Shown in pieces: positions 23,534-64,000 of a stretch of 64,000 nucleotides of DNA (position 1 is the first letter of the stretch; each line of letters begins with the position of its first letter). The notes below the pieces were generated by a model that was not told the origin of the DNA, made no database searches, and was given only the letters and a program-made list of their open reading frames with translations. The translations under genes were made by a program, and so were the position numbers. The stretch lies in the sequence record PZ445439.1, one strand, 5' to 3'. Source of the stretch: a phage.

Positions 23534-23572
23534 GTAAGACTACTATAACATAACACGAGGGACTTGTAAACT
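23534..23572 (-). promoter_or_regulatory. T4-type early promoter (-35 GTTTAC, -10 TATAGT) driving the alt.-3-position gene
   Basis: Minus strand GTTTACaagtccctcgtgttatgtTATAGT; matches T4 early promoter -35 consensus. Confidence 0.6.
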
Positions 23573-25631: not shown

Positions 25632-27725
25632 TTATCCTTGAACGAACTTGTAAGGCATGTTTGTAATATCTATGCAAGACGCAATAATTCCAAGAGATGA
25701 TTCTACTTTCTGTTTAACGTTTGATGAAACAAATGATGCAAAGTCAACTCTGTCTTCTATTTCAATATCACCTGTCATTGCAACCAATTCACCAGTTTCC
25801 ATTAAATGGTCTCCATCATAGATTACCGATTCGGTGAGCTCTTCCGTGGTCATAACTTCAGCTTGAATGAGTTTTGTATTATTAGATGTTGTTCCGTCAT
25901 TATTAGAAGCATCAGTTATTTTATTAACTTTGACCATCAATCCACGCGGTAGAATAACTTCAGCTTCTGTTGCTATTCCGAGACTTCCTGGATATACAAC
26001 ATTAACTTTATGAGCTCCATCAATTGCCCATCCTATTTGAACTTTAACGTATTCAGGATTTTCTTTATACGCTCTTATTTCGTTTGGATTAATAGTTATT
26101 CCTTCTTCATTTTTATCAACTGTTAATTCATTGCGAGCTTCTGGTTCTAAAAGACCAATACCAGCATGTGTAATTCCAAAACGTCCAAAAATGATAGGAG
26201 TTAAAGAAGTAGATACAAAATTTCTGAAGTAGAACACTTTATTTTTAACTAGTGCTTCGTATATAGGAGCAGTCATACTTTGAGCACGATAAACTGTAAT
26301 GCCTTCCGGTATGCGGTCACCATTTTCAAAAGCTGAATCTAAATTATTTATAGCAGATTCAATTTCTTTTTCACTCATTACATCATATCGTTCTGGATTG
26401 TAACGACCTAAAAGAAGATTATTGATGTCAGTATATCCTGAACCACAATACTCTCTAATGCCGCGCTTTTGTGATGGAGTATATTTAGAACCATCACGGG
26501 CAATAGTAATATCAATCATTGGACCTGCACCAATTCCAGAAAAACTATAAATCATTCTTTTGAGGAATTTAGTTTTTGCTGCGTTCCAGGAATTTTTAGT
26601 CATTTCTTCCCAGACTTCATCTGGCTGCCCTTTACGAGTTTTATTATGTTTATCAAGCCAATTATCTTTATATTCTTCAAAGAGTTGATTAACAGCTGCT
26701 GCGTATTTCTCTAAACATTTTATTGAAGTAGTTGGTTCATTTTTAATCGCATTAAGAATTACATCTTTAATTTTTTCAGAAACTTCATTAACCTCACTTT
26801 TTGAAAAGAATTTATAGTCATAATGAAGTTCATCTGCGGTTCCTTCGGCAATAATTTTTGCTGCCTTAGTTTTAGAAGCTAATGAATTAATTCCAAGTTT
26901 CATTTCTTCTGCTTCGGGAATTAAAGGAGCGGTAGCAGGTTTATTGAAATTAGCTGCGGTAGATTCATATTTCTGGAATAATTCACTTTCAAATCTAGAA
27001 GATTCCAATGACTGACTTTGTGCAATTGCTCTACGGGAAATTTTAACTTTAACGATTACAGCTTGGTCAGAACGTTTATCATTTTCTTGTGCAATAGATG
27101 CAGCAATTGCCTCATTTTTAGTTACTTGAGCTCCAGTATCTTTATTGATATAAACATCACCGACCTTCGATTCAACTTTAGTAAAGAGCTCGGTGCTAAT
27201 TTCCGGAACTCCTGGAATGTCTTCTAGTGATACATTTTTGCGATGTATAAGAATATATGCATACTTTTTATCGTAATCCCAGAGTTCCTTAAGAAGGACG
27301 TATCTGCCACCTGAACGACTGCGGATAAGTCTATCAGCAATAAGTTGAATTTGACGAGCTTGACCAGCAGTTTTAGACTTAAGAATACGGAGCATACAGG
27401 CATCAATTTTATACTGACGCATCGTCTGCATCGCAACAGTAAAAACTGAATTGATGTAATTAATTGGGCTTGGACCGAGACCTTTTAATTTAGCAATTGA
27501 ACCTTTAGCAGTTAATGTAAAAGGAACAATATGCATCATTTTATCGCCCATCTTTAAATCGCGATTAGTATCACCTCCAGATGTATAGGTACATAAACGA
27601 AAGCCTGGTTGTTCAATTGCGTCATCAACATGAACTGAAAAAATTTGTGGTATTTTCTTCTTTGGATTTAAGTTTGTAATCGGAAGAGTAGTATCTTCGT
27701 CAAATAATTCTGTAATGAGTTCCAT
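25632..27725 (-). CDS. alt: Alt, capsid-packaged ADP-ribosyltransferase (about 697 aa from second ATG)
   Basis: N-terminus MELITELFDEDTTLPITNL matches recalled T4 Alt; R-STS-ExE motifs present; late promoter upstream. Confidence 0.92.
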   Translation of the reverse strand: MELITELFDEDTTLPITNLNPKKKIPQIFSVHVDDAIEQPGFRLCTYTSGGDTNRDLKMGDKMMHIVPFTLTAKGSIAKLKGLGPSPINYINSVFTVAMQTMRQYKIDACMLRILKSKTAGQARQIQLIADRLIRSRSGGRYVLLKELWDYDKKYAYILIHRKNVSLEDIPGVPEISTELFTKVESKVGDVYINKDTGAQVTKNEAIAASIAQENDKRSDQAVIVKVKISRRAIAQSQSLESSRFESELFQKYESTAANFNKPATAPLIPEAEEMKLGINSLASKTKAAKIIAEGTADELHYDYKFFSKSEVNEVSEKIKDVILNAIKNEPTTSIKCLEKYAAAVNQLFEEYKDNWLDKHNKTRKGQPDEVWEEMTKNSWNAAKTKFLKRMIYSFSGIGAGPMIDITIARDGSKYTPSQKRGIREYCGSGYTDINNLLLGRYNPERYDVMSEKEIESAINNLDSAFENGDRIPEGITVYRAQSMTAPIYEALVKNKVFYFRNFVSTSLTPIIFGRFGITHAGIGLLEPEARNELTVDKNEEGITINPNEIRAYKENPEYVKVQIGWAIDGAHKVNVVYPGSLGIATEAEVILPRGLMVKVNKITDASNNDGTTSNNTKLIQAEVMTTEELTESVIYDGDHLMETGELVAMTGDIEIEDRVDFASFVSSNVKQKVESSLGIIASCIDITNMPYKFVQG

Positions 27726-27748
27726 CATATCCTCTCTAGTGTTTATTC

Positions 27749-40773: not shown

Positions 40774-41276
40774 TTAAAAATATTTTTTAAAACTCATCAT
40801 AACTTTATCATCAACATCATTATCAATCTGTGCAACAAGATAAGATGACAGTTCTACTTCTTGTGGCGCGGATTGAACATTATCAGAATTAAGATATTCA
40901 CGAATCCAAGGATATGGGTGTTTAACCGGAGCATCGGTAATTGGGCATGGAAGACCACACTGTTTCATACGAGATACAGTTAAGTAATCAATAAAGCTCC
41001 ACATGTTATTTGTATTTAATCCAGGAACATCGCCATCTTTAAATAAATGAACTGCCCAATCTTTTTCTTGGCGGTTAACTTCCATGAAAATATCAACTGC
41101 TTCTTGTTCACACTCTTGAGCAATTTTAACCCATTCATCGCCATCAGTGCCAAGTTGAAGTTGACGAATAATATATTGAGTGCCTTTAAGGTGAAGCTGT
41201 TCATCACGTGCAATGAACTTCATAATCTTGGCATTGCCTTCCATGATTTCCATATTCTTGTGGAAGTTAAAGGTAC
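40774..41276 (-). CDS. nrdB: Ribonucleotide reductase small subunit NrdB, exon 2
   Basis: C-terminal half aligns to class Ia R2 (E. coli NrdB ...[23 protein letters not shown]...); junction codon TGT (Cys) is formed across the splice. Confidence 0.85.
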
Positions 41277-42367
41277 CGTTATGTTCGATTGAGCTCGCTA
41301 ATTCTCAACCCGTTCTCTTATGAACTGCTACATATTACTATGCAGACCAGACTATATCACAATCCCAGAGGGATTCTCCCCATTTCGAGTCGCTTGACCC
41401 TACGTCCGAAGACTAGTCGTTGAACCTTGCTTTGCAATTGTCGCCGTGCCATCGTTTATATGTTGATGGTGATAAATCTTTCTTATCACAATATGGACAA
41501 TTCAATTGAATTCTATTTGGATTTAATTTACATCTGTCATTATGTTTTAGATAAAATCCAGGACCTTTACCAATGTGACCACAAAAATCACATGTGATTT
41601 CTTTTTGTGCAGGATGGGTCCCGTTCTTAACCATTTCTAATGTTTTTGCTGATGTTCTTTTCTTATGGTCTTCTGATAAGAAATGATGTGAACCGTCATT
41701 TACCCGTTTTGATTGAGTTTCTGACTGCATTTTACCACCGCAAAATACATGAGTACCTTCTTTTATAGCTGCAATATTGCGTTCTTTAACTTTTGCAATA
41801 TGCTCAGCTTGTTGAAAATTATGTATACCTAATGCAACTCTATTTAAATTAGATTTACGCTGTATTTCACCGTCTAAAAGATGAAATGTACCATTTTCTA
41901 TCTTAGATTTAATAGAGGCAATATTTTTAGCTCGTACTTCAGGGATATTAAAAATCTGGATTTCTCTAGATTTTGCGGCTTTAGAAGCTAATTCAGAAAT
42001 TTCTTCAGGAGAATATTTCATTCTAAGCTTTATAGCATGACAAGCCTGGTAATCTTTTTGAGCTAAATGTATATCATAATGTTCCTGTATAGAAAGGCAC
42101 ATCAAATTATCTAAATCATTATTTTCACGGTTACCGTCTTTATGATGGATTTCGTATGTTCTTCCATCAGAATCTTTAGGTATAGGTCCGTTAGCATCTA
42201 TCCAAATTTTTCTATAGTTCAATTGTGCATCCTCTTAAAAGTATAATCATATTTATATTATACTAATTAAAGGTGCAAGCAAAACCTTGGCTGCTAGTTT
42301 TCCTATAAAGGACTTTCCAGCAATTAAAGGAGTTTTCGATAAACGTTACCGTTTAAAGGCGCATTTT
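41277..42367 (-). mobile_element. Group I self-splicing intron in nrdB (about 1091 nt) carrying an intact HNH homing endonuclease ORF
   Basis: nrdB reading frame interrupted by in-frame TAA after ...YVSFA; exon ends in U, intron ends in G; spliced frame restores conserved YVSFAC; internal 269-codon ORF. Confidence 0.85.
41413..42222 (-). CDS. Intron-encoded HNH homing endonuclease (I-TevIII-like, 269 aa; apparent non-ATG start)
   Basis: N-terminal HNH motif (EIHHKDGNRENNDLDNL) and C-terminal Cys clusters; 269 aa as recalled for full-length I-TevIII of phage RB3. Confidence 0.85.
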   Translation of the reverse strand: MNYRKIWIDANGPIPKDSDGRTYEIHHKDGNRENNDLDNLMCLSIQEHYDIHLAQKDYQACHAIKLRMKYSPEEISELASKAAKSREIQIFNIPEVRAKNIASIKSKIENGTFHLLDGEIQRKSNLNRVALGIHNFQQAEHIAKVKERNIAAIKEGTHVFCGGKMQSETQSKRVNDGSHHFLSEDHKKRTSAKTLEMVKNGTHPAQKEITCDFCGHIGKGPGFYLKHNDRCKLNPNRIQLNCPYCDKKDLSPSTYKRWHGDNCKARFND

Positions 42368-43043
42368 ACGCAAAAGATACATAAAAACGAATTGCTTCTA
42401 AGGCATTAATAACGTGCAAACAGAGGTAAAGAGATTTCATTAGCTCACGCTTCCAATATGTCTCATGCTCAATAGCATCTTCAATAACGTCTTCGTCTGC
42501 ATTAATTTCTTTTTGGTATTCGATATCAGCTTTAGCGTTTTCCCAATAACGAGCTTTAACCAGAACATCATCATAATATCGTCCGATAGATTCGGCACGC
42601 TTCATAATAGCTTCATCTAATACAATCTCATCAAACACCTTCGATGGATCGGTATAAAGATTTCGCATAATATGAGTGTACGAACGAGAGTGAATAGTTT
42701 CACTGAATGTCCATGTTGCAACCCACGTATCTAATGAAGGGTCGGAAATCAGTGCCATAAGTACCGCAGATGGGGCCCTGCCTTGGATAGAATCTAATAA
42801 TGATTGATACTTAAGATTGTTTGTAAAGATGTCCTGTTGGAACTGAGGAAGCTTATTGAACTGCGCAGAGTCCAACATCAAGTTTACCTCTTCTGGGCGC
42901 CAGAAAAATGACAATTGCTTTTCAATAAGTTCTTCAAAAACTTTATGTCGCTGAATATCATAACGTGCGAGGCCAAGACCAGAACCAAAGAACATTGGTT
43001 CATTCAAAACATCGACTTGTTGTGTGTTAAAAACTGTACTCAT
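42368..43043 (-). CDS. nrdB: Ribonucleotide reductase small subunit NrdB, exon 1
   Basis: N-terminal half; ends ...LEAIRFYVSFA, which aligns with E. coli NrdB immediately before the intron. Confidence 0.85.
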
Positions 43044-49223: not shown

Positions 49224-49877
49224 TTAATACTTACATGATTTGATTGTTTCTATGAACAATTTCTTAGCAACATTTCCATCGATTTGAAGTATTTTTCGAT
49301 ATGCCTTTAATTTGGTAGAATAATTTTGCCAGACTAAGTTATCGGTGAGTTCGTCGTGCTTATCTATAATATTCAAAAACGAGTCCAACAATAAGAAAGT
49401 CTCAAATGAAATTATATTGCTTTGTAACAATTTAAATATGTAGCTCGACTGAACTTTATTATTATAATCAAATATCTCTTGAAGCGCACTAACTTCCACT
49501 TTCTTACTGAAATAGTAGATGTTACGTACGTCTTCAGCAAACGTCTCTTTAGCTTGTTTGAGACGTCCAATATATTCCCTATAGAAAACTAATGCATCAG
49601 CGTCTGATATCTCACCAATCCATGCGTCTTGGTTAGCAACTAAGTTGCTTATGAATATCAAGGTGAGTTCCTTCAATTTATATTTCTCTGCTAGTTTTTC
49701 AAAGAAATATTTATCTCGGCGTTTTTGATACGCATTATCCGAAACACGCATGCGCCAGTTATATTTGATTACGTCATACCGACCACCAAAGTGGTTTTTG
49801 CACATCAAGTATAGTTTATATACTGATTTACCGTTAATATAACGTTCTCCGTCAGGAGGCATGCGTATTTTAATCAT
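49224..49877 (-). CDS. 59: gp59 helicase loader (217 aa)
   Basis: ORF track; highly similar to recalled T4 gp59. Confidence 0.93.
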   Translation of the reverse strand: MIKIRMPPDGERYINGKSVYKLYLMCKNHFGGRYDVIKYNWRMRVSDNAYQKRRDKYFFEKLAEKYKLKELTLIFISNLVANQDAWIGEISDADALVFYREYIGRLKQAKETFAEDVRNIYYFSKKVEVSALQEIFDYNNKVQSSYIFKLLQSNIISFETFLLLDSFLNIIDKHDELTDNLVWQNYSTKLKAYRKILQIDGNVAKKLFIETIKSCKY

Positions 49878-50553
49878 AGTTCCATCCAGGCCATTTTGAA
49901 GATTTAAGTCTATACGTAACTAGAGATGCAGAAATATTAAAAACATCCGAAACTTCTGTGCATGATGAGTATTTTATACCATCAATAATTATAGGTTTTT
50001 GTTTTTTAATAGTTCTTTCTTTAGAATGCGGCTTTGAATTTGCTATTCTAAGAGCTTCTTTGGTTGAATCAGGCATCGGCTTATTCGTTTTTCGCCCTTT
50101 TCGGACTTTACTCAAAGCTAATTTATGAGCTTCAGATAGTTTCTTACCCTTATTAGGGGATGGTATTTTTCTTTCTAATCTGGTTTTAGATACTTTAGCC
50201 TTAGTCTCTTCAGATCTAGGTTTCCCTATTTTAGAAAGTGAAATAGCCCTTTTAGCTTCATCACTTTGTTTTTTACCAGGGCCACCTTTACCACCTGGAA
50301 CCAGGTTATAAGTATCAGTTCGCAAAACAAAATCTTCATTAACCAATTCTGCTTCTTTTTTATAGGCGTCCTTGTCATTATCATATTCATAAAGAACTTC
50401 AGTATAAAAATTTTTTAGCCCGTATTTAGCTTTGGCCGCTAATATAGCGCGACCAGACCCAATATACCAATCTTTCTCTTTATGTTTTTTGTGTACGCCT
50501 ATATAAATTTTACCATTTATTTTATTGGTAGTTTTATACACAACGTATTTCAT
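49870..50553 (-). CDS. GIY-YIG homing endonuclease, Seg-type (227 aa)
   Basis: N-terminal GIY-YIG module (YVVYKTTNKINGKIYIGV); Lys-rich linker with repeated S-x-x-x-K-x-A-x-S-like (NUMOD3-type) motifs; overlaps genes 59 and 33 by a few nt. Confidence 0.8.
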   Translation of the reverse strand: MKYVVYKTTNKINGKIYIGVHKKHKEKDWYIGSGRAILAAKAKYGLKNFYTEVLYEYDNDKDAYKKEAELVNEDFVLRTDTYNLVPGGKGGPGKKQSDEAKRAISLSKIGKPRSEETKAKVSKTRLERKIPSPNKGKKLSEAHKLALSKVRKGRKTNKPMPDSTKEALRIANSKPHSKERTIKKQKPIIIDGIKYSSCTEVSDVFNISASLVTYRLKSSKWPGWNYD

Positions 50554-52163: not shown

Positions 52164-55100
52164 ATGGCCGACATCAAACGTAAGTTCAGAGCCGAAGACG
52201 GTCTGGACGCCGGTGGCGACAAGATTGTTAACGTAGCATTAGCCGACCGTACAGTAGGTACTGATGGCGTAAACGTTGACTTCCTGGTACAAGAAAACAC
52301 CGTTCAAGTATATGATTCTACGCGTGGATATAACAAAGGATTTGTTGTTCTTTATGACAACCGTTTATATCAAGCAATAAATGATATCGTGTCTCCTTCC
52401 GGGGCATTTAACCTTTTACAATGGCGTGCAGTTCGTACCGATGCACAATGGATAACTGTCGCTTCTGGGACTTATCAACTTTCTTCAGGTGAATCGATTT
52501 CGGTTAACACTGGTGCCGGCAATGATATGGTTTTCACGTTGCCAAATACGCCGGTTGATGGTGATACTGTTGTTTTGGCTGATATTGGTGGAAGAACCGG
52601 GACAGTTAAAGTACAGATTAACGCGTCTGTGCAGAGTATTTTAAACTTTAGAGGTGAACAAGTTCGTACAGTTTTAATGACGCGCCCACGTTCACAACTA
52701 TTGTTTGTGTTTAGTAATCGTTTGTGGCAGATGTATATTACCGATTATGGTAAAGAATCAATCACTGTTACACCTGCGACACCATATCAAGCACAAGCAA
52801 ATGATTTTATCGTTCGTCGTTTTACTAGTGCAGCACCAATCAACATTACACTTCCACGTAATGCTAACAATGGTGATATAATCAGCCTAGTCGATTTAGA
52901 TAGATTAAACCCACTATATCATACAATTGTTAAAACATTTGATGATACAACGTCTATTGGTGAAGTCGGGACTCATATTGCCGAAGGCAGAAATGACTCT
53001 GACGCGTTTTTTGTTTTTGATGCTGCAAATAGTTTATGGCGTATATGGGAAGGCGACCAGAAATCGCGTCTTCGTATTATCCGTGCGGATTCAAATATTC
53101 GTCCAAATGAAGAAGTTCTTATTTTTGGCACAAATAACGCTACAGCCGGAACTATTAATCTTACGCTGCCTTCCGGAATTTTGAGTGGTGACACTGTTAA
53201 AATTTCAATGAACTACATGCGTAAAGGCCAAACAGTAAAAATTAAAGCTGCCGAAGGTGATACAATTGCTTCTTCTGTTGCATTGCTTCAGTTCCCTAAA
53301 CGTTCTGAATATCCACCTGATGCTCAATGGGTCTCTGTTACTGAACTAGAATTCAATGGCACTACTTCATATGTTCCTGTATTAAAATTAGCATATATCG
53401 AAGACACCGTTGCTGGTACACGTTATTGGGTTGTTCAACAAAACGTCCCAACTGTAGAACGTGTTGATGCTGGAACTGATGCTACACGAGCTCGTTTAGG
53501 TGTTATTGCTCTTGCTACTCAAGCGCAAGCAAATGTTGATTTAGAGAATACTCCAGCTAAAGAAGTTGCTATTACTCCGGAAACATTGGCAAATCGTACA
53601 GCAACTGAAGCTCGACGTGGTATCGCTAAAATTGCCACAACAGCACAAGTTAACCAGAATTCCACAGCATCATTTGTGGACGATACTATTGTTACGCCTA
53701 AAAAACTAAATGAGCGTACAGCAACTGAAACTCGTCGCGGTCTTGCTGAAATTGCTACTCAGGCCGAAACCGATGCCGGTCTTGATGACACAACGATTAT
53801 TACACCTAAGAAATTGCAGGCACGTCAGGGCTCTGAAACACTATCTGGTATAGTTAAATATGTATCAACTACTTCTGCTACTCCTGCTGAAACTCGTGGA
53901 ACCGCAGGCACTAACGTTTATAATAAAACCGTAAATAATTTAACTATTTCTCCTAAAGCCCTTGACCAATATAAAGCAACTTATGCTCAACAAGGTGCGG
54001 TAATTTTAGCTGTTGATAGTGAAGTAATTGCTGGTCAATCACAAGCAGGTTATTCTCATGCTGTAGTAACTCCTGAAACACTACATAAGAAAACTTCTAC
54101 TGATGGACGTATTGGTTTAATTGAAATTGCTACGCAAGCAGAAACTAATGCTGGGACTGATTATACACGCGCAGTAACACCTAAGACGTTAAATGATAGG
54201 AAAGCTACGGAAGGATTATCCGGCATAGCCGAACTTGCTACGCAAGTTGAATTTGATACTGGAACTGATGATACTCGTATCTCGACTCCACTGAAAATTA
54301 AAACTCATTTTGATTCTTCTGACCGTACCAGTGTTAATTCTGATTCCGGACTTATTGAAGAAGGAACCTTGTGGAACCATTATACTCTTGATATTTCTAA
54401 AGCAAATGAAACACAACGCGGTACACTTCGCGTAGCGACACAGGCAGAATCTAATGCAGGAACTTTAGATGATGTTCTTATTACTCCTAAAAAGCTTTTA
54501 GGGACTAAGTCCACTGAAACGTCTGAAGGCGTAATTAAGGTTGCTACTCAGGCTGAAACTGTAACAGGAACTTCTGCTAATACTGCTGTATCTCCTAAGA
54601 ATTTAAAATGGATTGTCCAGAAAGAACCAACATGGGCTGCTACTACAGCAATTCGCGGATTCGTTAAAACTTCATCCGGTTCTATTACATTCGTTGGTAA
54701 TGATACAGTCGGTTCTACACAACCTTTAGAATCATATGAGAAAAATAGCTATGCAGTATCACCATATGAATTAAACCGTGTACTTGCTAACTATTTGCCA
54801 TTGAAAGCTAAAGCCGTAGATAGTAATTTATTAGATGGCCTAGATTCATCTCAGTTCATTCGTAGGGACATTGCACAGACGGTTAATGGTTCACTATCCT
54901 TAACCCAACAAACGAATCTGAGTGCCCCTCTTGTATCAACTAGTACTGCTACGTTTGGTGGTTCAGTTTCGGCAAATAGTACATTAACTATTTCTAACTC
55001 TGGAACAGCTACTCGTCTGATTTTTGAAAAAGGACCTCAAACTGGAACTAACCCAGCACAGACGATGACTATCAGAGTTTGGGGAAATGAATTTGGCGGT

Positions 55101-56039
55101 GGTTCAGATACAACACGTTCTACTGTATTTGAAGTTGGCGATGAAACATCTAATCACTTTTATTCTCAACGTAATAAAGCCGGGAATATAACGTTTAGTA
55201 TCAATGGTACTGTGATGCCAATAAATGTTAACGCTTCAGGCACGTTAAATGCGAATGGCGTTGCAACATTTGGTCGTTCAGTTACAGCCAATGGCGAATT
55301 CATTAGCAAGTCTGCAAATGCTTTCAGAGCAATTAGTGGTGATTACGGATTCTTTATTCGCAATGATGCTACTAACACCTATTTTATGCTTACTGCATCA
55401 GGTGACCAGACTGGCGGATTTAATGGATTACGTCCTTTAGCTATTAACAATGCATCTGGTCAAGTAACGATTGGTGAAAGCTTAATCATTGCTAAAGGTG
55501 CTACTATAAATTCAGGTGGTTTAACAGTTAACTCAAGAATTCGTTCTCAGGGTTCTAAAACTGCTGATTTATACACTCGTGCTCCTACTGCTGATACAGT
55601 CGGATTCTGGTCAATTGACGTCAATGATTCAGCTACATATAACCAATTCCCGGGTTATTTTAAAATGGTTGAAAAAACTAATGAAGTGACTGGACTTCCA
55701 TACTTAGAGCGCGGTGAAGAAGTTAAATCTCCTGGTACGCTGACTCAGTTTGGTAACACACTTGATTCGCTTTACCAAGATTGGATTACTTATCCAACGA
55801 CGCCAGAAGCGCGTACCACTCGCTGGACACGTACATGGCAGAAAACCAAAAACTCTTGGTCAAGTTTTGTTCAGGTATTTGATGGAGGTAACCCTCCTCA
55901 GCCGTCTGATATCGGTGCTTTACCATCTGATAATGCTACAATGGGGAATCTTACTATTCGTGATTTCTTACGAATTGGTAATGTTCGCATTGTTCCTGAC
56001 CCAGTGAATAAAACTGTTAAATTTGAATGGGTTGAATAA
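52164..56039 (+). CDS. 34: Long tail fibre proximal subunit gp34 (1291 aa)
   Basis: ORF track; size and N-terminus as T4 gp34; late promoter upstream. Confidence 0.95.
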   Translation: MADIKRKFRAEDGLDAGGDKIVNVALADRTVGTDGVNVDFLVQENTVQVYDSTRGYNKGFVVLYDNRLYQAINDIVSPSGAFNLLQWRAVRTDAQWITVASGTYQLSSGESISVNTGAGNDMVFTLPNTPVDGDTVVLADIGGRTGTVKVQINASVQSILNFRGEQVRTVLMTRPRSQLLFVFSNRLWQMYITDYGKESITVTPATPYQAQANDFIVRRFTSAAPINITLPRNANNGDIISLVDLDRLNPLYHTIVKTFDDTTSIGEVGTHIAEGRNDSDAFFVFDAANSLWRIWEGDQKSRLRIIRADSNIRPNEEVLIFGTNNATAGTINLTLPSGILSGDTVKISMNYMRKGQTVKIKAAEGDTIASSVALLQFPKRSEYPPDAQWVSVTELEFNGTTSYVPVLKLAYIEDTVAGTRYWVVQQNVPTVERVDAGTDATRARLGVIALATQAQANVDLENTPAKEVAITPETLANRTATEARRGIAKIATTAQVNQNSTASFVDDTIVTPKKLNERTATETRRGLAEIATQAETDAGLDDTTIITPKKLQARQGSETLSGIVKYVSTTSATPAETRGTAGTNVYNKTVNNLTISPKALDQYKATYAQQGAVILAVDSEVIAGQSQAGYSHAVVTPETLHKKTSTDGRIGLIEIATQAETNAGTDYTRAVTPKTLNDRKATEGLSGIAELATQVEFDTGTDDTRISTPLKIKTHFDSSDRTSVNSDSGLIEEGTLWNHYTLDISKANETQRGTLRVATQAESNAGTLDDVLITPKKLLGTKSTETSEGVIKVATQAETVTGTSANTAVSPKNLKWIVQKEPTWAATTAIRGFVKTSSGSITFVGNDTVGSTQPLESYEKNSYAVSPYELNRVLANYLPLKAKAVDSNLLDGLDSSQFIRRDIAQTVNGSLSLTQQTNLSAPLVSTSTATFGGSVSANSTLTISNSGTATRLIFEKGPQTGTNPAQTMTIRVWGNEFGGGSDTTRSTVFEVGDETSNHFYSQRNKAGNITFSINGTVMPINVNASGTLNANGVATFGRSVTANGEFISKSANAFRAISGDYGFFIRNDATNTYFMLTASGDQTGGFNGLRPLAINNASGQVTIGESLIIAKGATINSGGLTVNSRIRSQGSKTADLYTRAPTADTVGFWSIDVNDSATYNQFPGYFKMVEKTNEVTGLPYLERGEEVKSPGTLTQFGNTLDSLYQDWITYPTTPEARTTRWTRTWQKTKNSWSSFVQVFDGGNPPQPSDIGALPSDNATMGNLTIRDFLRIGNVRIVPDPVNKTVKFEWVE

Positions 56040-56047
56040 GAGGTATT

Positions 56048-57163
56048 ATGGAAAAATTTATGGCAGAGTTTGGACAAGGATATGTCCAAACGCCATTTTT
56101 ATCGGAAAGTAATTCAGTAAGATATAAAATAAGTATAGCGGGTTCTTGCCCGCTTTCTACCTCAGGACCATATGTTAAATTTCAGGATAATCCTGTAGGA
56201 AGTCAAACATTTAGCGCAGGTCTTCATTTAAGAGTTTTTGACCCTTCAACAGGAGCATTGGTTGATAGTAAGTCATATGCTTTTTCGACTTCAAATGATA
56301 CTACATCAGCGGCTTTTGTTAGTTTCATGAATTCTTTTTCAAGCAATAGACTTGTTGCTATATTAACTAGCGGAAAGGTTAATTTTCCTCCTGAAGTAGT
56401 ATCTTGGCTAAGAGCTGCAGGAACGTCTGCTTTTCCATCTGATTCTATATTGTCAAGATTCGACGTATCATATGCTGCTTTTTATACTTCTTCTAAAAGA
56501 GCTATCGCACTAGAACATGTTAAACTGAGTAATAGAAAAAGCACAGATGATTATCAAACTATTTTAGATGTTGTATTTGACAGTTTAGAAGATGTTGGAG
56601 CTACCGGGTTTCCAAGAAGAACGTATGAAAGCGTTGAGCAATTTATGTCAGCGGTTGGTGGAACTAATAACGAAATTGCGAGATTACCAACTTCATCCGC
56701 GATAAGTAAACTATCTGACTACAATTTAATTCCTGGCGATGTTCTTTATCTTAAAGCACAACTATACGCTGATGCTGATTTACTTGCTCTTGGAACTACG
56801 AATATATCCATTCGTTTTTATAATGCATCTAATGGATATATTTCCTCGACACAAGCTGAGTTTACCGGAAAAGCTGGGTCTTGGGAATTAAAAGAAGATT
56901 ATGTAGTTGTTCCAGAAAACGCCGTGGGATTTACGATATATGCGCAAAGAACTGCAAAAGCAGGTCAAGGTGGTATGAGAAATTTAAGCTTTTCTGAAGT
57001 GTCAAGAAATGGAGGTATTTCGAAACCTGCTGAGTTTGGCGTCAACGGCATTCGAGTTAATTATGTCTGTGAATCCGCTTCACCTCCGGATATAATGGTA
57101 CTTCCTACGCAATCATCGTCTAAAACTGGTAAAGTATTTGGGCAAGAATTTAGAGAAGTTTAA
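56048..57163 (+). CDS. 35: Long tail fibre hinge protein gp35 (371 aa)
   Basis: ORF track; size and synteny. Confidence 0.9.
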   Translation: MEKFMAEFGQGYVQTPFLSESNSVRYKISIAGSCPLSTSGPYVKFQDNPVGSQTFSAGLHLRVFDPSTGALVDSKSYAFSTSNDTTSAAFVSFMNSFSSNRLVAILTSGKVNFPPEVVSWLRAAGTSAFPSDSILSRFDVSYAAFYTSSKRAIALEHVKLSNRKSTDDYQTILDVVFDSLEDVGATGFPRRTYESVEQFMSAVGGTNNEIARLPTSSAISKLSDYNLIPGDVLYLKAQLYADADLLALGTTNISIRFYNASNGYISSTQAEFTGKAGSWELKEDYVVVPENAVGFTIYAQRTAKAGQGGMRNLSFSEVSRNGGISKPAEFGVNGIRVNYVCESASPPDIMVLPTQSSSKTGKVFGQEFREV

Positions 57164-57168
57164 ATTGA

Positions 57169-57190
57169 GGGAGCCTTCGGGTTCCCTTTT
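57169..57190 (+). terminator. Rho-independent terminator after gene 35
   Basis: gggagcc-ttcg-ggttccc with one G-U pair, followed by tttttcttt. Confidence 0.7.
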
Positions 57191-57194
57191 TCTT

Positions 57195-57202
57195 TATAAA
57201 TA
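57195..57202 (+). promoter_or_regulatory. Late promoter TATAAATA for gene 36
   Basis: Exact motif about 24 nt upstream of ATG. Confidence 0.7.
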
Positions 57203-57225
57203 CTATTAAAATAAAGGGGCATACA

Positions 57226-57888
57226 ATGGCTGATTTAAAAGTAGGTTCAACAACTGGAGGCTCTGTCATTTGGCATCAAGGAAATTTTCCATTGAATCCA
57301 GCCGGTGACGATGTACTCTATAAATCATTTAAAATATATTCAGAATACAATAAACCACAAGCAGCTGATAACGATTTCGTTTCTAAAGCTAATGGTGGTA
57401 CTTACGCCGCGACTGTTCGATTTAATGGAGGCGTACATGTTCCTACTATAGGTAGTAGTCAACAGTGCGGCGTTTATCCAGGCAACGGTGATGCAGCTAC
57501 TTTTGCTATGGCAAATATTGACATCGTTTCGTGGAATGGTATTGGTTTTAAATCATCACAAGGTTCAGCAGACCGAACTGTTGTAATTAATGCACGTAAT
57601 GGTGATATTAGTACAAAAGGCGTCGTGACAGCAGTAGGTCAAATAAGAAGTAATGCAGTTTCTCCTGTAGCAGCGAATGACCTAACTCGCAAAGATTATG
57701 TTGATGGAGCAATAAATACTGTTACAGCAAATGCGAACTCTAGAGTGTTACGATCTGGCGACACTATGACGGGTAACTTAACCGCACCAAACTTTTTTTC
57801 GCAGAATCCTGCATCTCAACCTTCACACGTTCCACGATTTGACCAAATCGTAATTAAGGATTCTGTTCAAGATTTCGGCTATTATTAA
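57226..57888 (+). CDS. 36: Long tail fibre distal connector gp36 (220 aa)
   Basis: ORF track; size and synteny; late promoter upstream. Confidence 0.9.
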
Positions 57889-57896
57889 GAGGACTT

Positions 57897-60800
57897 ATGG
57901 CTACTTTAAAACAAATACAATTTAAAAGAAGCAAAACCGCAGGTGCACGTCCTGCTGCTTCAGTATTAGCCGAAGGTGAATTGGCTATAAACTTAAAAGA
58001 TAGAACACTTTTTACTAAAGATGATTCAGGAAATATCATCGACTTAAGCATTTCTGCTGGCGGTAGTATCAGTGGAAATATCACTCAAACTGGTGATTAT
58101 TTACAAAATGGAACATATAATCTTAATGGAAACCAGTTTGTTTATGCAGGAAAATATATTGAATTTTTACCTAAAACTGCTGGTAATGGTGCTTGGGCAA
58201 ATCAACACCTAAATAAAGCTCCTATTTTTACGGATTTAAGTTCAACTACTTCCGTTTCAGAATACCATCCGCTAATTAAGCAGCGTTATAAAGATGGGAC
58301 TTTTTCAGCGGGTACATTGGTTGCTGAAGGAAGTTTTAAGATTCATTACATCAATGAATCTGGGGATTCGAAATATTGGACTTTTAATCGTAATGGTAAT
58401 TTCCAAGTTGACACAGGCGATTTATTTGTCAGCAAAGGTAATATTTCCGCTTCAGGCAATATTAATTCAGCTACTGGAATAGTTTCTGCTCCACAGATTA
58501 ATACAAAAACCATAGTTTTTGATACAAAGGCATTCGGACAATACGATTCGCAGTCATTAGTTCAATATGTTTATCCTGGAACAGGTGAAGAAAATGGTAT
58601 AAACTATCTTCGTAAAGTTCGAGCTAAATCAGGCGGAACTATTTACCATGAAATCGCTTCAGCTCAAACCGGTAAGAATGATGAAATTTCTTGGTGGACT
58701 GGAAATTCGCTTACTACTAAATTAATGGGTCTTCGTAATGATGGCGCAATGGTATTACGTCGTTCACTTGCTATTGGCACAATTACCGCTGATGAAAATA
58801 CTAACAACTATGGTTCTCCTACTCCAATGGGAGAAAGATATATTGCTTTGGGTGATGCTGCAACCGGTTTAAAATATATTAAGCAAGGTGTTTATGATTT
58901 AGTAGGTAATTGGAATTCTGTTGCTTCTATTACTCCTGACAGTTTCCGCAGTACTCGCAAAGGTTTATTTGGACGTTCAGAAGACCAAGGCGGAACCTGG
59001 ACAATGCCTGGAACGAACGCTGCTCTCTTGTCTGTTCAAACCCAGGCAGATGTGAATAACGCAGGCGATGGTCAAACCCACATTGGATATAATTCTGGCG
59101 GTAAATTTTCCCATTATTTCCGCGGTAAAGGCCAAACCAACATTAATACGCAGGAAGGTATGGAAATTAACCCTGGTATTTTGAAATTGGTAACTGGCTC
59201 TAATAACGTACAGTTTTATGCTAATGGAACAGTATCTTCAATACAAAGAATTAAATTTGATAACGGATTAGTTCTTACTGGTGCTAGACCTGATGGTATT
59301 CAACTTGATGCGCCTACATCAGTAGATGGCACTAAAACTATACTGTGGGCTGGTGGTACTCGCGCAGGTCAGAATAAAAGTTATGTATCTATTAAAGCGT
59401 GGGGTAATTCATTTAACGCATCTGGCGATCGCACTCGTGAATCAGTTTTTGAAGTAGCTGATGGACAAGGTTATTATTTTTATGCGCAACGTATAGCTCC
59501 TGCACCAGGTTCAACAACTGGAGTAATTCAATTTAGAGTTGCTGGAGCATTATTAACCGGTGGTGGTATTACATCATCTGGTTCTATTGTTACTGAATCA
59601 AGTTTAGTTGCAAATAATGGATTATCTGTAAATGGTCAGGCTAAATTTGGTGGAACGGCAGATGCATTAAGAATTTGGAACGCTGAATATGGTGCTATTT
59701 TCCGTCGTTCAGAAGCATCATTACATATTATCCCGACTCCTAAAGATGCTGGTGAAAGTGGTGGAATAAGTAATCTCCGCCCGCTTAGTATTAGCCTTAA
59801 TAATGGTATGGTGCAAATGCGTCATTCTGTTACGTTAGGCGATGATGGTGCAGGCGGTAATATGGTGACGGTTGATAATGATTCTAAAGTTATGGTAATG
59901 ACGACTAATAGCCGTATTAGTCCTAACTTCCGTATGCAAATTGGACAGTCGTCTTATATTGATGCTGAATGTACTAATGCTGTTAGACCGGCTGGCGCAG
60001 GTTCTTTTGCTTCGCAAAATAATGAAAATGTTCGTGCTCCGTTCTATATGAATATTGATAGAACTGATACTAGTACATATGTTCCAATTGTTAAACAGAG
60101 ATATGTGCAAAATAATAGTTGCTATTCTATCGGTACTTTAATTAATGGTGGTAATTTTAGAGTTCATTATCATGAAGGTGGTGATGGCGGTTCTACTGGC
60201 GCGATTATAAAGGATTTAGGTTGGGAATTTAATAAAAACGGTGATTTTTACTCTCCTGGTAAATTAGGTGCTGGTAATGTTCGTATTGGTACTGATGGTA
60301 ATATCACGGGGGGTTCATTACCTAACTTTGCTAACTTGAACTTGACATTAGATCGTAAAGTCAATACCCGAATGGTTTCTTATTCAGGTACTGGCGGTTG
60401 GTACAAATTAGCCACTGTAACAATGCCACAATCCACTTCAACCGTCACATTCGAAATTGCTGGTGGTAATGGCTATAATGTTAACACCCCACACCAATGC
60501 GTTACTTCGAAAATTGTTTTAAGAACTTCGAACAATAACCCGAAAGGTATTAATGCTGTTGTTTGGTCGATGGATACCGATCAGGGTATTAAGAATGTTG
60601 CAACGGTTAATACATCAGGCGATGTTTATGACATCTATGTAAACGTTGGTACTTATGCTCAGGCGTTAGCAGTTTCTTATTATGCTACTCCTAATGCTAC
60701 CATTAACCAGGTATTTGCAACGGACCAACCGGGTGCAACAGAAACTGCGGTTGAACTTCCTGAGACGGCTATTCAAGGACAGGTTGCTAGTGTTCTGAAT

Positions 60801-61805
60801 AACTTGGCTCTTACCCCGAACGGTGTAAAACGTTATGAAGCCGATTCTGAAATAGCTATTAATAGCCAAACTGGCATTCGTATTAGAAGCAACAGCGATA
60901 AAACTGGTTCTGTTGCTACAATGCTACGAAATGATGGTGGTAGTTTTTATATTCTGTTTACAGATAAAAATGCCACCGATGGCGCAGCAACTGTTAATGG
61001 TGATTGGAATAGTAAACGTCCTTTCGCAATTAACTTAACAACCGGCGAAGTGCTAATGAATAACGGCATAGCTGTTCGCAGCGCTGCTTTATTCTATAAT
61101 AGCATAAACGTCAAAGATAATGGTTCTATTAACTTTGATAAGTCCGGAGCTAACCCAAGAAATATGAGAATATTTCATGCTGGCGATGGCACTCGTGGTA
61201 ATCGCATTGAAATTGCCGATGAAACTAACTATATTGCTTACTTCCAAAAATTACCTGGTGGTCAAAACCAAGTTTCATTCAATAGCGCTACACTTTCTGG
61301 ATTAACACAGTGTAATCAATTTGGTGTTAACACAACAAACGCACTTGGTGGAAACAGTATAACATTTGGTGATACCGATACTGGTATTAAGCAAAATGGC
61401 GATGGATTATTAGACATATATGCGAACAACGTACAAGTGTTCCGTTTCCAAAACGGTGATTTGTACTCATACAAAAATATAAATGCTCCAAACGTTTATA
61501 TTCGTTCTGATATTCGTTTAAAATCCAACTTTAAGCCTATCGAAAATGCACTTGATAAAGTTGAAAAACTTAACGGTGTCATTTACGATAAGGCTGAATA
61601 CATCGGTGGAGATGCAATTGAAACTGAAGCGGGTATTGTGGCTCAAACGTTACAAGACGTTTTACCAGAAGCTGTCCGTGAAACAGAAGACAGTAAGGGT
61701 AATAAAATACTCACTGTTTCTTCTCAAGCCCAGATTGCTCTTCTAGTTGAAGCTGTGAAAACACTTTCTGCTCGTGTAAAAGAACTCGAATCTAAACTTA
61801 TGTAA
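57897..61805 (+). CDS. 37: Long tail fibre distal subunit gp37 (1302 aa), T2/T6 type with C-terminal intramolecular chaperone (autoproteolytic) domain
   Basis: ORF track; C-terminal ~100 aa (...[29 protein letters not shown]...ELESKLM) resembles the chaperone domain of fibre/endosialidase proteins. Confidence 0.9.
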
Positions 61806-61806
61806 A

Positions 61807-61824
61807 AGAGGGCTTCGTCCCTCT
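61807..61824 (+). other. Stem-loop after gene 37 (weak terminator candidate)
   Basis: agaggg-cttcgt-ccctct; T-run begins 5 nt downstream. Confidence 0.4.
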
Positions 61825-61835
61825 AAGGATTTTTA

Positions 61836-62618
61836 ATGGCAATTGTAGGTGTTCCTGGCTGGATTGGTGAATCTGCCGTGAATGAAACTGGACAACGTTG
61901 GATGGATGCTGCAATGAGAGCAGTCCGTGTTTCAGTTCCTGGTTGGATGAGCTCAATGGCTGGGCAATCTAAAGAGATTCATTATAGCATTGGTGCTAGT
62001 AATTCTTATAATAAAGACACATTAATAAACTGGATAAAAGCCCAAGGAAGTACTCCTGTTGTTATTACTATTACAGGAAATATTGTTTCTCAATCTACTG
62101 GTGTTCCGTGTCTGGATTTCCCTAGTTCGTTGACCAATGCATATGTTACGTTGATCATTAACTCTGGCGTGACTGTCTATGGACGTGGGGGTAATGGTGG
62201 TAGTAACGCTGCCGGTGCTGCTGGTGGTAACGCAATTAATAATGGCATCGGTACACGCTTGCGTATTACGAATAATGGTGCAATCGCTGGCGGCGGCGGC
62301 GGCGGTGGCGGCGGTAACAGGGGTAAACTAATATTTGGTGGTGGCGGTGGTCGCCCATTCGGTGCTGGTGGGTCTTCCTCTCATATGAGTTCCGGTGCAA
62401 CTGCTGGTACTATTTCCGCTCCTGGTAAAGGATCTGTTGGTGAGGGGTCTCTTAGCGCATATACAGGCGGTGCGGGCGGTAACGTTGGTGCTGCTGGAGG
62501 AAGATGTAATACCCAAGGTAACGGTACAGAATATAACGGCGGCGCAGCTGGTAAAGCTGTTACCGGTAATGCTCCAACTTGGACTAAAGTTGGTACAATA
62601 TATGGTTCAAGAGTATAA
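61836..62618 (+). CDS. 38: gp38 receptor-recognising adhesin, T2/T6 type with glycine-rich motifs (260 aa)
   Basis: ORF track; conserved N-terminal region plus C-terminal poly-Gly segments separated by variable stretches. Confidence 0.88.
   Translation: MAIVGVPGWIGESAVNETGQRWMDAAMRAVRVSVPGWMSSMAGQSKEIHYSIGASNSYNKDTLINWIKAQGSTPVVITITGNIVSQSTGVPCLDFPSSLTNAYVTLIINSGVTVYGRGGNGGSNAAGAAGGNAINNGIGTRLRITNNGAIAGGGGGGGGGNRGKLIFGGGGGRPFGAGGSSSHMSSGATAGTISAPGKGSVGEGSLSAYTGGAGGNVGAAGGRCNTQGNGTEYNGGAAGKAVTGNAPTWTKVGTIYGSRV
62289..62315 (+). repeat. (GGC/GGT)9 trinucleotide tract encoding nine consecutive glycines in gp38
   Basis: Direct reading of ggcggcggcggcggcggtggcggcggt. Confidence 0.9.
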
Positions 62619-62649
62619 TTTTGAATAAATATCCTTAAAAGGAGGGTCT

Positions 62650-63306
62650 ATGGCAGCACCTAGAATATCATTTTCGCCCTCTGATATTCTGTTTGGTGTT
62701 CTAGATCGCTTGTTCAAAGATAACGCTACCGGGAAAGTTCTTGCTTCCCGGGTAGCTGTCGTAATTCTTTTGTTTATAATGGCGATTGTTTGGTATAGGG
62801 GAGATAGTTTCTTTGAGTACTATAAGCAATCAAAGTATGAAACATACAGTGAAATTATTGAAAAGGAAAGAAATGCACGCTTTGAATCTGTCGCCCTGGA
62901 ACAACTCCAGATAGTTCATATATCATCTGAGGCAGACTTTAGTGCGGTGTATTCTTTCCGCCCTAAAAACTTAAACTATTTTGTCGATATTATAGCATAT
63001 GAAGGAAAATTACCTTCAACAATAAGTGAAAAATCACTTGGAGGATATCCTGTTGATAAAACTATGGATGAATATACAGTTCATTTAAATGGACGTCATT
63101 ATTATTCTGACTCAAAATTTGCTTTTTTACCAACTAAAAAGCCTACTCCCGAAATAAACTACATGTACAGTTGTCCATATTTTAATTTGGATAATATCTA
63201 TGCTGGAACGATAACCATGTACTGGTATAGAAATGATCATATAAGTAATGACCGCCTTGAATCAATATGTTCACAGGCGGCCAGAATATTAGGAAGGGCT
63301 AAATAA
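62650..63306 (+). CDS. t: Holin T (218 aa)
   Basis: ORF track; near-identical to recalled T4 holin; single N-terminal transmembrane segment. Confidence 0.95.
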   Translation: MAAPRISFSPSDILFGVLDRLFKDNATGKVLASRVAVVILLFIMAIVWYRGDSFFEYYKQSKYETYSEIIEKERNARFESVALEQLQIVHISSEADFSAVYSFRPKNLNYFVDIIAYEGKLPSTISEKSLGGYPVDKTMDEYTVHLNGRHYYSDSKFAFLPTKKPTPEINYMYSCPYFNLDNIYAGTITMYWYRNDHISNDRLESICSQAARILGRAK

Positions 63307-63579
63307 TTATTTGTTCGTATACATCTCTAGATATCGATATACACCCTCAAAACCCTCGTTGAATTCGTCGATGAGGGTTTTCTTATCTTCTTTGGTTAAT
63401 TCAGAAACAATTTTACGGAATGAATTCTGATTTAATTTTCTACCTTCATGCGTTACTCCAATCTCATTCAGAAATGCAATAAAATTAGCACGATTCTCAA
63501 CAATATCTTCTCTGGAAAATTTAATCAAAATAGACGCAACAGTAATAATTTCACGAACTGTATCAATATTTTTATTCAT
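63307..63579 (-). CDS. asiA: AsiA anti-sigma-70 factor (90 aa)
   Basis: ORF track; near-identical to recalled T4 AsiA. Confidence 0.95.
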   Translation of the reverse strand: MNKNIDTVREIITVASILIKFSREDIVENRANFIAFLNEIGVTHEGRKLNQNSFRKIVSELTKEDKKTLIDEFNEGFEGVYRYLEMYTNK

Positions 63580-63591
63580 TAACTATACCAC

Positions 63592-63744
63592 TCAATTAGT
63601 TGACTTTGTTATAATATCATCAGACGCTTGATTTGTAAACTGGTCTGTGGTATTTTCTTCAAAAATTTTTTCTACGAATTCCTTGAACGACTCACGTTCC
63701 TGAGCTACATTATGCTCGATTACTTTTTCAAGATTATGACTCAT
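63592..63744 (-). CDS. Small hypothetical protein (50 aa), below the ORF-track cutoff; start overlaps arn stop (ATGA)
   Basis: Manual translation MSHNLEKVIEHNVAQERESFKEFVEKIFEENTTDQFTNQASDDIITKSTN. Confidence 0.45.
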   Translation of the reverse strand: MSHNLEKVIEHNVAQERESFKEFVEKIFEENTTDQFTNQASDDIITKSTN

Positions 63745-64000
63745 TCGAAATAATCCTCAATTTCATAATCATGGACATAAATCATTATAGTTTTTAATAC
63801 ATCATCAATACTTTTTCCTGGAACTGGAATTACGTAGAAATATCCTGCTTTTGAGAGGTCTTTATAAGTTCCAATCAAGAAATCATTATTCTCAAGATGT
63901 AATTCTTCAACTAATTCATTAACAATTGAATGGTATAGGTTTGGTAGAAACTTATATAGCTTTTCTAGAATATCAATTTTGATTGTGTATTGAACCACAG
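63741..64000 (-). CDS. arn: Arn anti-restriction nuclease, 5-prime end probably truncated by the window edge
   Basis: ORF track (GTG-initiated as given); position after asiA as in T4; acidic protein. Confidence 0.6.
   Translation of the reverse strand, partial: VVQYTIKIDILEKLYKFLPNLYHSIVNELVEELHLENNDFLIGTYKDLSKAGYFYVIPVPGKSIDDVLKTIMIYVHDYEIEDYFE

Follow-up and report, generated by a model that had tools for sequence, protein, structure and literature searches.

The distal tip of the long tail fibre encoded in this phage DNA (the window, a stretch of 64,000 nucleotides of sequence record PZ445439.1) is almost certainly the two-protein tip common to most T-even phages besides T4. We hold with equal confidence that it consists of a self-trimming fibre protein, gp37, capped by a small, glycine-rich, OmpA-recognising gp38. 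The latter is a K3-type, OmpA-specific adhesin, and not one of T2 (FadL) or T6 (Tsx) specificity. The tip arrangement has already been described: the initial annotation had observed and interpreted it correctly, and nothing in it is new. Because it has been published for Bas45 (BASEL) and for the near-twin K3, the present work is confirmation rather than discovery, adding a precise annotation of which bond is predicted to be cleaved (R1203|S1204), where the segments begin and end, and where the mosaic parts join. The finding shows which protein, and which roughly 110 of its residues, set the primary receptor (OmpA), and this knowledge helps to predict host range and to guide engineering through gp38 swaps.

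The interval 61400-62618 holds the last ~135 amino acids of gp37 and the entire gene 38. Gene 37 (57897..61805, + strand) is an open reading frame whose product, of 1302 aa and 139 kDa, is the precursor of the distal subunit of the long tail fibre and matches PHROG 1699 'long tail fiber protein distal subunit' over aa 1-1302 (E=0). Gene 38 (61836..62618, + strand) encodes 260 aa, annotated as a monomeric receptor-binding adhesin of the K3 type, and the gene order 37-38-t is held in common with T4. Thus both proteins lie where the initial annotation had placed them and have the lengths that it gave, 1302 aa for gp37 (1026 aa in T4) and 260 aa for gp38. An exact-sequence look-up returned identical (100%) proteins from Escherichia phage PaulHMueller (Bas45), QXV83448.1 for gp37 and QXV83449.1 for gp38, the second annotated as 'adhesin tip for distal long tail fiber'. 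At the nucleotide level, the best match of the 37-38 region in the 'phages' collection was vB_Eco_Solly, with 87.8% identity. No NCBIfam family model matched gp37 or gp38, and scans of the whole window for tRNAs and, at gathering level, for Rfam families found nothing.

The gp38 adhesin and its receptor

Two Pfam families cover gp38 almost end to end: Gp38_N (PF21721) on aa 1-42 (64.6 bits, E=8.1e-18) and GP38 (PF05268) on aa 47-260 (240 bits, E=2.8e-71). The protein also matches PHROG 2056 'tail fiber protein; host specificity' (E=4.9e-100), the solved gp38 of S16 (6F45_D, with aa 8-258, E=4.6e-49) and that of PP01 (9v85, E=3.8e-35). The profile scores of gp38, like those of gp37, greatly exceed what chance would give. 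Full-length homology to a solved structure, together with the exact database match, settles that gp38 is an adhesin. Like S16 gp38, it would join an attachment domain with Trp prongs to a beta-helix and a polyglycine-II sandwich, the sandwich domain being expected to fold as in 6F45.

The attachment domain (aa 1-42, 61836..61961, + strand) carries W9, W22 and W37, which align with the Trp residues of S16 gp38, all three conserved, for which a docking role into gp37 has been described (PMC6851490). The subtypes of gp37 C-termini and gp38 N-termini are known to be paired in a lock-and-key manner (PMC3157838), and such a pairing is found here, with a T2-like gp37 tip and a gp38 that shares 98% identity with T2 (100% with JK38) over aa 1-45. 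The same stretch is only 44% identical to FL18 and 62% to RB49, the N-terminal domains following each phage's gp37 type. Unlike the window phage, Krischvirus has its gene 38 far from gene 37.

The specificity region (aa 116-239, 62181..62552, + strand) consists of glycine-rich motifs alternating with variable segments, and glycine rises from 23% of the whole protein to 38% within it. Runs of nine (G9, aa 152-160, 62289..62315) and five glycines (aa 168-172) have variable stretches between them. With operational bounds, as for G9, the hypervariable segments on the same strand are HVS1 (aa 123-151, 62202-62288), HVS2 (aa 161-167, 62316-62336), HVS3 (aa 176-214, 62361-62477) and HVS4 (aa 223-234, 62502-62537). 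Among 12 adhesins the glycine runs are invariant, while the intervening segments differ by receptor class. The architecture initially described, an N-terminal attachment region followed by glycine-rich motifs, is thus recovered by Gp38_N, GP38 and the analysis of glycine runs. Two open reading frames overlapping gene 38, at 62395-62628 (+) and 62328-62516 (-), were set aside as by-products of the GGN-rich sequence.

The assignment to the K3/OmpA type is made because gp38 is identical to K3 gp38 (P07876), the classical OmpA-specific T-even adhesin, at 259 of 260 positions and exactly matches Bas45, both phages being OmpA-dependent. The sole difference from K3, A29 here for E29 there, lies in the attachment domain. 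The requirement of Bas45 for OmpA has been established by knockout and complementation (PMC8594841), and RB-TnSeq likewise returned ompA for this phage (bioRxiv 10.64898/2026.04.02.716166). For Bas45 and K3, OmpA is the primary receptor and Kdo the secondary one. OmpA is also the receptor of K3, RB49 and EV240 (bioRxiv 10.64898/2026.04.02.716166), of AV108 (PMC10844046) and of FL12, FL18 and FL20 (PMC12032242). The last three, which are members of Tequatrovirus, Mosigvirus and Krischvirus, respectively, carry 'Type 2' OmpA adhesins (Lutz et al. 2025), and they share OmpA dependence with RB49, AV108 and the K3-type adhesin of the window.

A T2 (FadL/OmpF) or T6 (Tsx) specificity in place of OmpA would be in keeping with the first 45 residues of gp38, 98% identical to T2 and wholly identical to the Tsx-binding JK38, and with the T2-like tip of gp37; we nevertheless regard it as very improbable, since the residues of the specificity region point the other way. 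Over aa 116-239 identity is 51% to T2, 66% to T6 and 71% to JK38, as against 82-95% to six OmpA binders; for the specificity half of gp38 the values are 56% to T2 and 64% to T6. In HVS2-4 identity reaches 100% with FL18 and 71-100% with RB49, AV108, FL20, FL12 and EV240 (all OmpA), compared with 29-62% for JK38 and T6 (Tsx) and 0-32% for T2 (FadL). In the Tsx binders T6 and JK38, HVS2 contains YYSPF..M.LTF and HVS3 is without a 4-residue stretch, unlike in the gp38 of the window, where segment comparison found no Tsx-type HVS2 (YYSPF..). The near-identity to K3 gp38 and the experimental OmpA dependence of Bas45 also stand against a T2 or T6 specificity.

Exchange of gp38 from HVS2 to its end changes the receptor of a phage from Tsx to OmpA. 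A single HVS substitution can also alter which porin is recognised, as shown by Q206L in RB68, and therefore sequence similarity alone would be inconclusive for the receptor; this doubt is removed by the exact match to Bas45, with which the independent indication of OmpA from the similarity to RB49, AV108 and the FL phages agrees. The proposed encoding of host range in gp38 is accordingly backed by the published OmpA dependence of a phage with identical proteins. The alignment of gp38 with those of T2, T6 and K3, suggested at the outset, delimited the variable segments and assigned the receptor class. The label 'T2/T6-type' given to the tip holds for its two-protein architecture and for the S74 domain, which T2 and T6 gp37 also have, but not for the specificity, which is that of K3 (OmpA). 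T2 and T6 share the gene order as well with the window phage, and T6 gp37 (994 aa) has little in common with the window gp37 outside the chaperone domain.

The C-terminus of gp37 and assembly of the tip

The extreme C-terminus of gp37, from residue 1204 of 1302, is a Peptidase_S74 intramolecular chaperone (IMC) domain of 10.8 kDa (aa 1204-1302; 61506..61805 with the stop codon, + strand). The Pfam profile PF13884 is matched on aa 1204-1261 over its whole length (1-58/58), with E=2.4e-15 and a score of 57 bits, the curated threshold being 22 bits. The ~100-aa chaperone-like segment anticipated in the initial annotation, whose quoted peptide begins at residue 1204, is thus one of 99 aa, and the profile search that had been proposed as a check gave a full-profile match in place of the refuting outcome. 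The Ser-Lys motif is intact (SDIRLK, residues 1204-1209, of the form S-D-x-x-x-K, in the context NVYIR|SDIRLK), and therefore release of a 99-aa fragment is predicted. The role of the Ser/Lys dyad is known from endosialidase IMC domains.

In a PDB search, the C-terminal 153 aa of gp37 aligned with the S16 gp37 construct 6F45_A (E=4e-12), the S-D-x-x-x-K motif falling on the S16 cleavage position. S16 gp37 is cut just before the Ser (DLNVS^SDRRIKK), which exposes the docking surface for gp38 (PMC7917993). By analogy, autocleavage is predicted at R1203|S1204, between nt 61505 and 61506, with Ser1204 and Lys1209 as catalytic residues. The two phages differ in the residues before the cleavage site (DLNVS in S16, NVYIR here), in the length of the released piece (113 residues in S16, 99 predicted here) and in the variable loops of gp38. 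The same search also matched the C-terminal 153 aa to the ICA domain of myelin regulatory factor (E=0.002), a genuine S74 relative, and to many influenza HA2 entries (E=0.03-0.6), regarded as coiled-coil noise.

Upstream of the predicted cut, mature gp37 ends distally in aa 1151-1203 (61347..61505, + strand), a stretch closing with ...NAPNVYIR that aligns with the S16 gp37 tip (6F45_A) and is 96% identical to T2 gp37. It is predicted to be the gp38 docking surface, by comparison with the S16 structure (PMC6851490, PMC7917993). Tip and IMC together show 94-100% identity to T2, and T2 and T6 gp37 have been reported to be processed. For T2, an old estimate puts the removed piece at about 120 residues, a looser figure than the 99 aa predicted here.

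The assembly of the tip, pieced together from S16 and T2, would then proceed as follows. gp37 would be made as a 1302-aa precursor, in which the IMC (aa 1204-1302) would drive the beta-helical fibre to trimerise and fold, before cutting itself off at Arg1203/Ser1204, Ser1204 acting as the nucleophile and Lys1209 as the base. What would remain is a mature gp37 of 1203 aa, ending ...NAPNVYIR, with the end surface of the trimer exposed. A single gp38 would dock there through its N-terminal three-helix domain, Trp9, Trp22 and Trp37 entering pockets of gp37. In its C-terminal half, the glycine-rich motifs would form a polyglycine-II sandwich with the variable loops at the tip, where they would bind E. 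coli OmpA by its extracellular loops. The S16 tip (6F45) has the organisation proposed for the window pair, a gp37 trimer whose IMC cleaves itself off and which carries one gp38 as its cap; the same stoichiometry and a cut at exactly this bond would be expected in the window phage. Nothing contradicts the combined gp37/gp38 model, in which we are confident to a degree approaching certainty.

The S74 domain might instead be a non-cleaving relic kept on gp37, with gp38 attaching elsewhere or needing other chaperones, given that Pfam attests homology rather than activity and that cleavage here is a prediction. This is highly unlikely: the Ser and Lys of S-D-x-x-x-K are intact, all 58 profile positions are matched, identity to T2 gp37, which is reported to be processed, amounts to 96-100% over the last 150 residues, and in S16 it is cleavage that exposes the docking surface (PMC7917993).

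Least probable of all, to the point of being negligible, is an organisation as in T4, with gp38 serving only as a chaperone in assembly and missing from the virion, and the receptor bound by the C-terminal tip of gp37: it has only the shared 37-38-t order for it, whereas the full length of gp38 is matched by the adhesin family and gp37 is without the Collar and Phage_fiber tip domains and ends in S74. T4 agrees with the window phage in the position of the locus and in the proximal parts of the fibre (gp34-gp36 and the N-terminus of gp37). Its gp37, which itself binds the receptor (PMC6851490), carries Collar and Phage_fiber domains and no S74, unlike the window gp37, in which Pfam found neither of these domains of the T4-type needle tip. 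The T4 gp38 chaperone (183 aa) is unrelated to gp38 here, BLASTP giving no meaningful alignment (E=40, against E=4.6e-49 for 6F45_D), and the adhesin-type gp38 of the initial annotation, as opposed to a T4 chaperone, was therefore the right reading.

Mosaicism of genes 37 and 38 and expression signals

Judged by their sequences, genes 37 and 38 are both mosaics. gp37 is Solly-like in aa 1-400 and 600-1100 and T2-like in aa 200-500 and 1151-1302. Besides S74, the only Pfam match in gp37 is a Gp34_trimer-like segment (PF21446, E=1.1e-10; aa 509-632, 59421..59792, + strand), which also matches the gp34 fragments 5nxf/4uxe in the PDB (E=1.4e-13). Since aa 431-648 of gp37 align with aa 889-1110 of the window's own gp34 (28% identity, E=6e-15), this segment is, by alignment, paralogous to the C-terminal region of gp34.

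In gp38, aa 152-260 are identical to those of Mosigvirus FL18 (about 97% in DNA), and the gene's 5' half is of a type unrelated to that of FL18. Mismatches to FL18 number 197 in 61836-62250, form a dense cluster up to 62288 and fall to 11 in 62290-62618, so that the junction of the FL18-like 3' cassette coincides with the G9 run (62289..62315). The HVS1 region matches RB49 and AV108 (Krischvirus) at 97% identity. A recent natural exchange of a receptor-specificity cassette among three genera, by recombination at glycine-rich motifs, is a likely origin of this pattern. The genera compared are Tequatrovirus (the window phage), Mosigvirus (FL18) and Krischvirus (RB49 type HVS1). A mechanism of recombination at such motifs was reportedly proposed by Tetart et al. 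in 1998, a work to which PMC3157838 refers. If true, the cassette exchange would be a clean natural example, usable to date or map such exchanges.

With regard to expression, an exact T4-type late promoter motif, TATAAATA, lies at 57195..57202 (+ strand), 24 nt before the ATG of gene 36 (57226). The motif has 19 matches in the window, compared with 8.1 expected, and from what is known of T4 this copy is probably the start of a 36-37-38 late transcript. Between genes 37 and 38, a terminator-like scan found a GC-rich hairpin with a UUCG loop, AGAGGGCTTCGTCCCTCT (61807..61824, + strand), with a putative role in RNA stability or partial termination. It is followed by a Shine-Dalgarno sequence, AAGGA (61825..61829, + strand), read directly from the letters 6 nt before the ATG of gene 38.

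The long tail fibre module and the tip of gp37

ORF calling placed a complete T-even long tail fibre module at the 3' end of the window, on the + strand: gene 34 (52164-56039, 1291 aa), gene 35 (56048-57163), gene 36 (57226-57888, Pfam Phage_T4_gp36), gene 37 (57897-61805, 1302 aa) and gene 38 (61836-62618, 260 aa), followed by the holin gene t (62650-63306, +; Pfam Phage_holin_T, E=6e-118) and by asiA on the minus strand. A T4-type late promoter motif (TATAAATA) lies directly 5' of gene 34 (52126) and gene 36 (57195), and the 37/38 gap contains a GC-rich hairpin with a UUCG loop (61807-61824) and an AAGGA ribosome-binding site. A second GC-rich hairpin with a UUCG-type loop is found between genes 35 and 36 (57167-57188), and terminator-like sites in 56000-64000 are commoner than in shuffles (14 vs 5.0 +/- 2.5).

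The initial annotation had assigned a chaperone domain of about 100 aa to the C-terminus of gp37, and this has been borne out. Since the peptide it quoted starts at residue 1204, the segment comprises 99 aa; it matches the entire Pfam Peptidase_S74 profile ('chaperone of endosialidase') with 57 bits (E=2.4e-15; cut-off, 22 bits). Moreover, the C-terminal region of gp37 can be aligned with the gp37 construct of S16 (PDB 6F45, E=4e-12), which puts NVYIR|SDIRLK opposite DLNVS^SDRRIKK, the site at which S16 gp37 cuts off its own chaperone and uncovers the surface on which gp38 docks (PMC7917993). Both Ser1204 and Lys1209 are preserved, and a mature subunit of 128.6 kDa and a released fragment of 10.8 kDa are therefore predicted. 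Domain searches detected the same S74 domain in gp37 of T2 and T6 and none in T4 gp37, which carries Collar and Phage_fiber tip domains in its place. Separately, a stretch of about 220 aa in gp37 (aa 431-648, 59187-59840) is paralogous to one in gp34 (aa 889-1110, 54828-55493), with 28% identity (E=6e-15). It corresponds to Gp34_trimer, a domain whose structure has been determined in T4 gp34, and is also present in gp37 of T4, T2 and T6.

The gp38 adhesin and its receptor

The 260-aa gp38 had been described as an attachment region followed by glycine-rich motifs and variable segments, and as an adhesin unlike its T4 counterpart. It matches Pfam Gp38_N (aa 1-42, E=8e-18) and GP38 (aa 47-260, E=2.8e-71), as well as PHROG 2056 ('tail fiber protein; host specificity'). 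Glycine accounts for 23% of the protein and 38% of residues 116-239, including runs of nine (G9) and five (G5). An alignment of 12 sequences shows these runs unchanged throughout and the intervening segments variable. Residues 8-258 match the solved S16 adhesin (E=4.6e-49), the PP01 adhesin is also matched (E=3.8e-35), and W9, W22 and W37, the three residues that plug into gp37 (PMC6851490), are conserved. A T4-type chaperone is ruled out, as gp38 shows no similarity to T4 gp38 (E=40). All features listed in the initial annotation are present, and with both the chaperone domain and the adhesin type recovered, the original interpretation stands.

The run of GGN glycine codons explains a local rise in GC (up to 0.49 in 62000-62499 vs about 0.38 in the flanks) and two spurious out-of-frame ORFs overlapping gene 38 (62395-62628, +, 77 aa; 62328-62516, -, 62 aa). 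In the Krischvirus adhesins of RB49 (sequence L004, 2986-3762) and AV108 (sequence L008, 1486-2262), the third docking Trp is replaced by Tyr (PAYMS vs PGWMS) and gene 38 is distant from gene 37, amid small hypothetical genes, which points to a gp37 docking surface of another shape in this genus.

As regards the receptor, the nearest matches of whole gp38 are two Tequatrovirus records (97% and 93.5%), followed by adhesins of the Krischvirus RB49 group (about 90%); typical Tequatrovirus adhesins of the Tsx type, for example that of JK38, show about 84% identity overall, 75% over the specificity half (aa 107-260) and 71% over aa 116-239. The variable segments HVS2 (NRGKLIF), HVS3 (containing GEGSLSAYTGG) and HVS4 (RCNTQGNGTEY) are 100% identical to those of FL18, and 71-100% identical to those of RB49, AV108, FL20, FL12 and EV240; all six phages are OmpA-dependent by experiment (PMC12032242; PMC10844046; bioRxiv 10.64898/2026.04.02.716166). 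Unlike gp38 here, the Tsx binders T6 and JK38 carry YYSPF..M.LTF in HVS2 and are four residues short in HVS3, and gp38 of T2, which uses FadL, differs throughout HVS2-HVS4. Exchange of gp38 from HVS2 onwards has been reported to suffice for converting a Tsx phage to OmpA. These sequence comparisons suggest OmpA as the receptor.

The question is settled by an exact-sequence look-up, in which gp37 and gp38 proved identical to proteins deposited in GenBank for Escherichia phage PaulHMueller (Bas45; genome, 170,053 bp), where gp37 is annotated as 'long tail fiber distal subunit' and gp38 as 'adhesin tip for distal long tail fiber'. Bas45 is ompA-dependent, as established by genetic complementation (PMC8594841), and ompA is the RB-TnSeq hit, with Kdo as secondary receptor, for both Bas45 and K3 (bioRxiv 10.64898/2026.04.02.716166). 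The gp38 of K3 (P07876) is identical to the present one at 259/260 positions. The tip is a textbook system, and the phage that carries it has been published and characterised by experiment. The proposed T2/T6-type tip holds for the architecture; the specificity is of the K3/OmpA type, not that of T2 or T6, which is the sole refinement.

Mosaic composition and proposed mechanism

The best nucleotide match of genes 37-38 in the 'phages' BLAST collection is 87.8%, and the remainder of the window shares 97-98% DNA identity with Tequatrovirus genomes. gp37 is nearly identical to that of vB_Eco_Solly over aa 1-400 and 600-1100, and T2-like over aa 200-500 and again over the last 150 residues; in these last residues identity to T2 is 94-100%, and identity to Solly falls to 66-92%. 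Residues 1-45 of gp38 share 98% identity with T2 and 100% with JK38; a T2-like N-terminus with a T2-like gp37 tip agrees with the lock-and-key rule of Trojet et al., by which the two types are paired (PMC3157838).

Further along gp38, the HVS1 region is RB49-like (97%), and from aa 152 to 260 the protein is the same as in Mosigvirus FL18. DNA mismatches to FL18 number 197 in 61836-62250 but drop to 11 over 62290-62618, so that the junction falls in or beside the G9 run (62289-62315). The idea of glycine-rich motifs as recombination points was reportedly put forward by Tetart et al. in 1998. This long-standing idea is cited in PMC3157838, and the position of the junction fits such motifs serving to swap specificity cassettes. 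Gene 38 is probably a clean cassette mosaic across three genera, an example of a known mechanism.

Domains, motifs and identities come directly from this analysis; the literature has shown OmpA dependence, the processing of T2 and S16 gp37, the structure of the (gp37)3-gp38 complex and the transfer of specificity via gp38 swaps. In this phage, gp37 would be folded and trimerised by its own C-terminal chaperone and would cleave itself between R1203 and S1204, a single gp38 would dock through its Trp prongs, and the distal variable loops of its polyglycine sandwich would recognise the OmpA loops.

Other features of the window

On the minus strand, nrdB is seemingly split (40774-43043) into parts covering Ribonuc_red_sm positions 9-141 (42366-43043) and 177-271 (40774-41253), with a 269-aa HNH_3 endonuclease ORF (41413-42222) between them. 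The arrangement resembles the T4 nrdB intron carrying an I-TevIII-like gene of full length; the group I intron match (RF00028, 41328-41568, E=1.4e-6) reaches 33.9 bits, below the gathering score of 50, and was not picked up by the whole-window Rfam scan at gathering level.

Two Alt-like ADP-ribosyltransferase genes lie in tandem, also on the minus strand (23571-25628, 685 aa, ADPrib_exo_Tox E=4.5e-20; 25632-27728, 698 aa, E=1.6e-37). Finally, a free-standing homing-endonuclease-like ORF (49870-50553, -, 227 aa) matches the I-TevI DNA-binding domain (E=5.7e-11) and, weakly, NUMOD3 and SegE GIY-YIG, and overlaps the start of gene 59 (49224-49877) by 8 nt.
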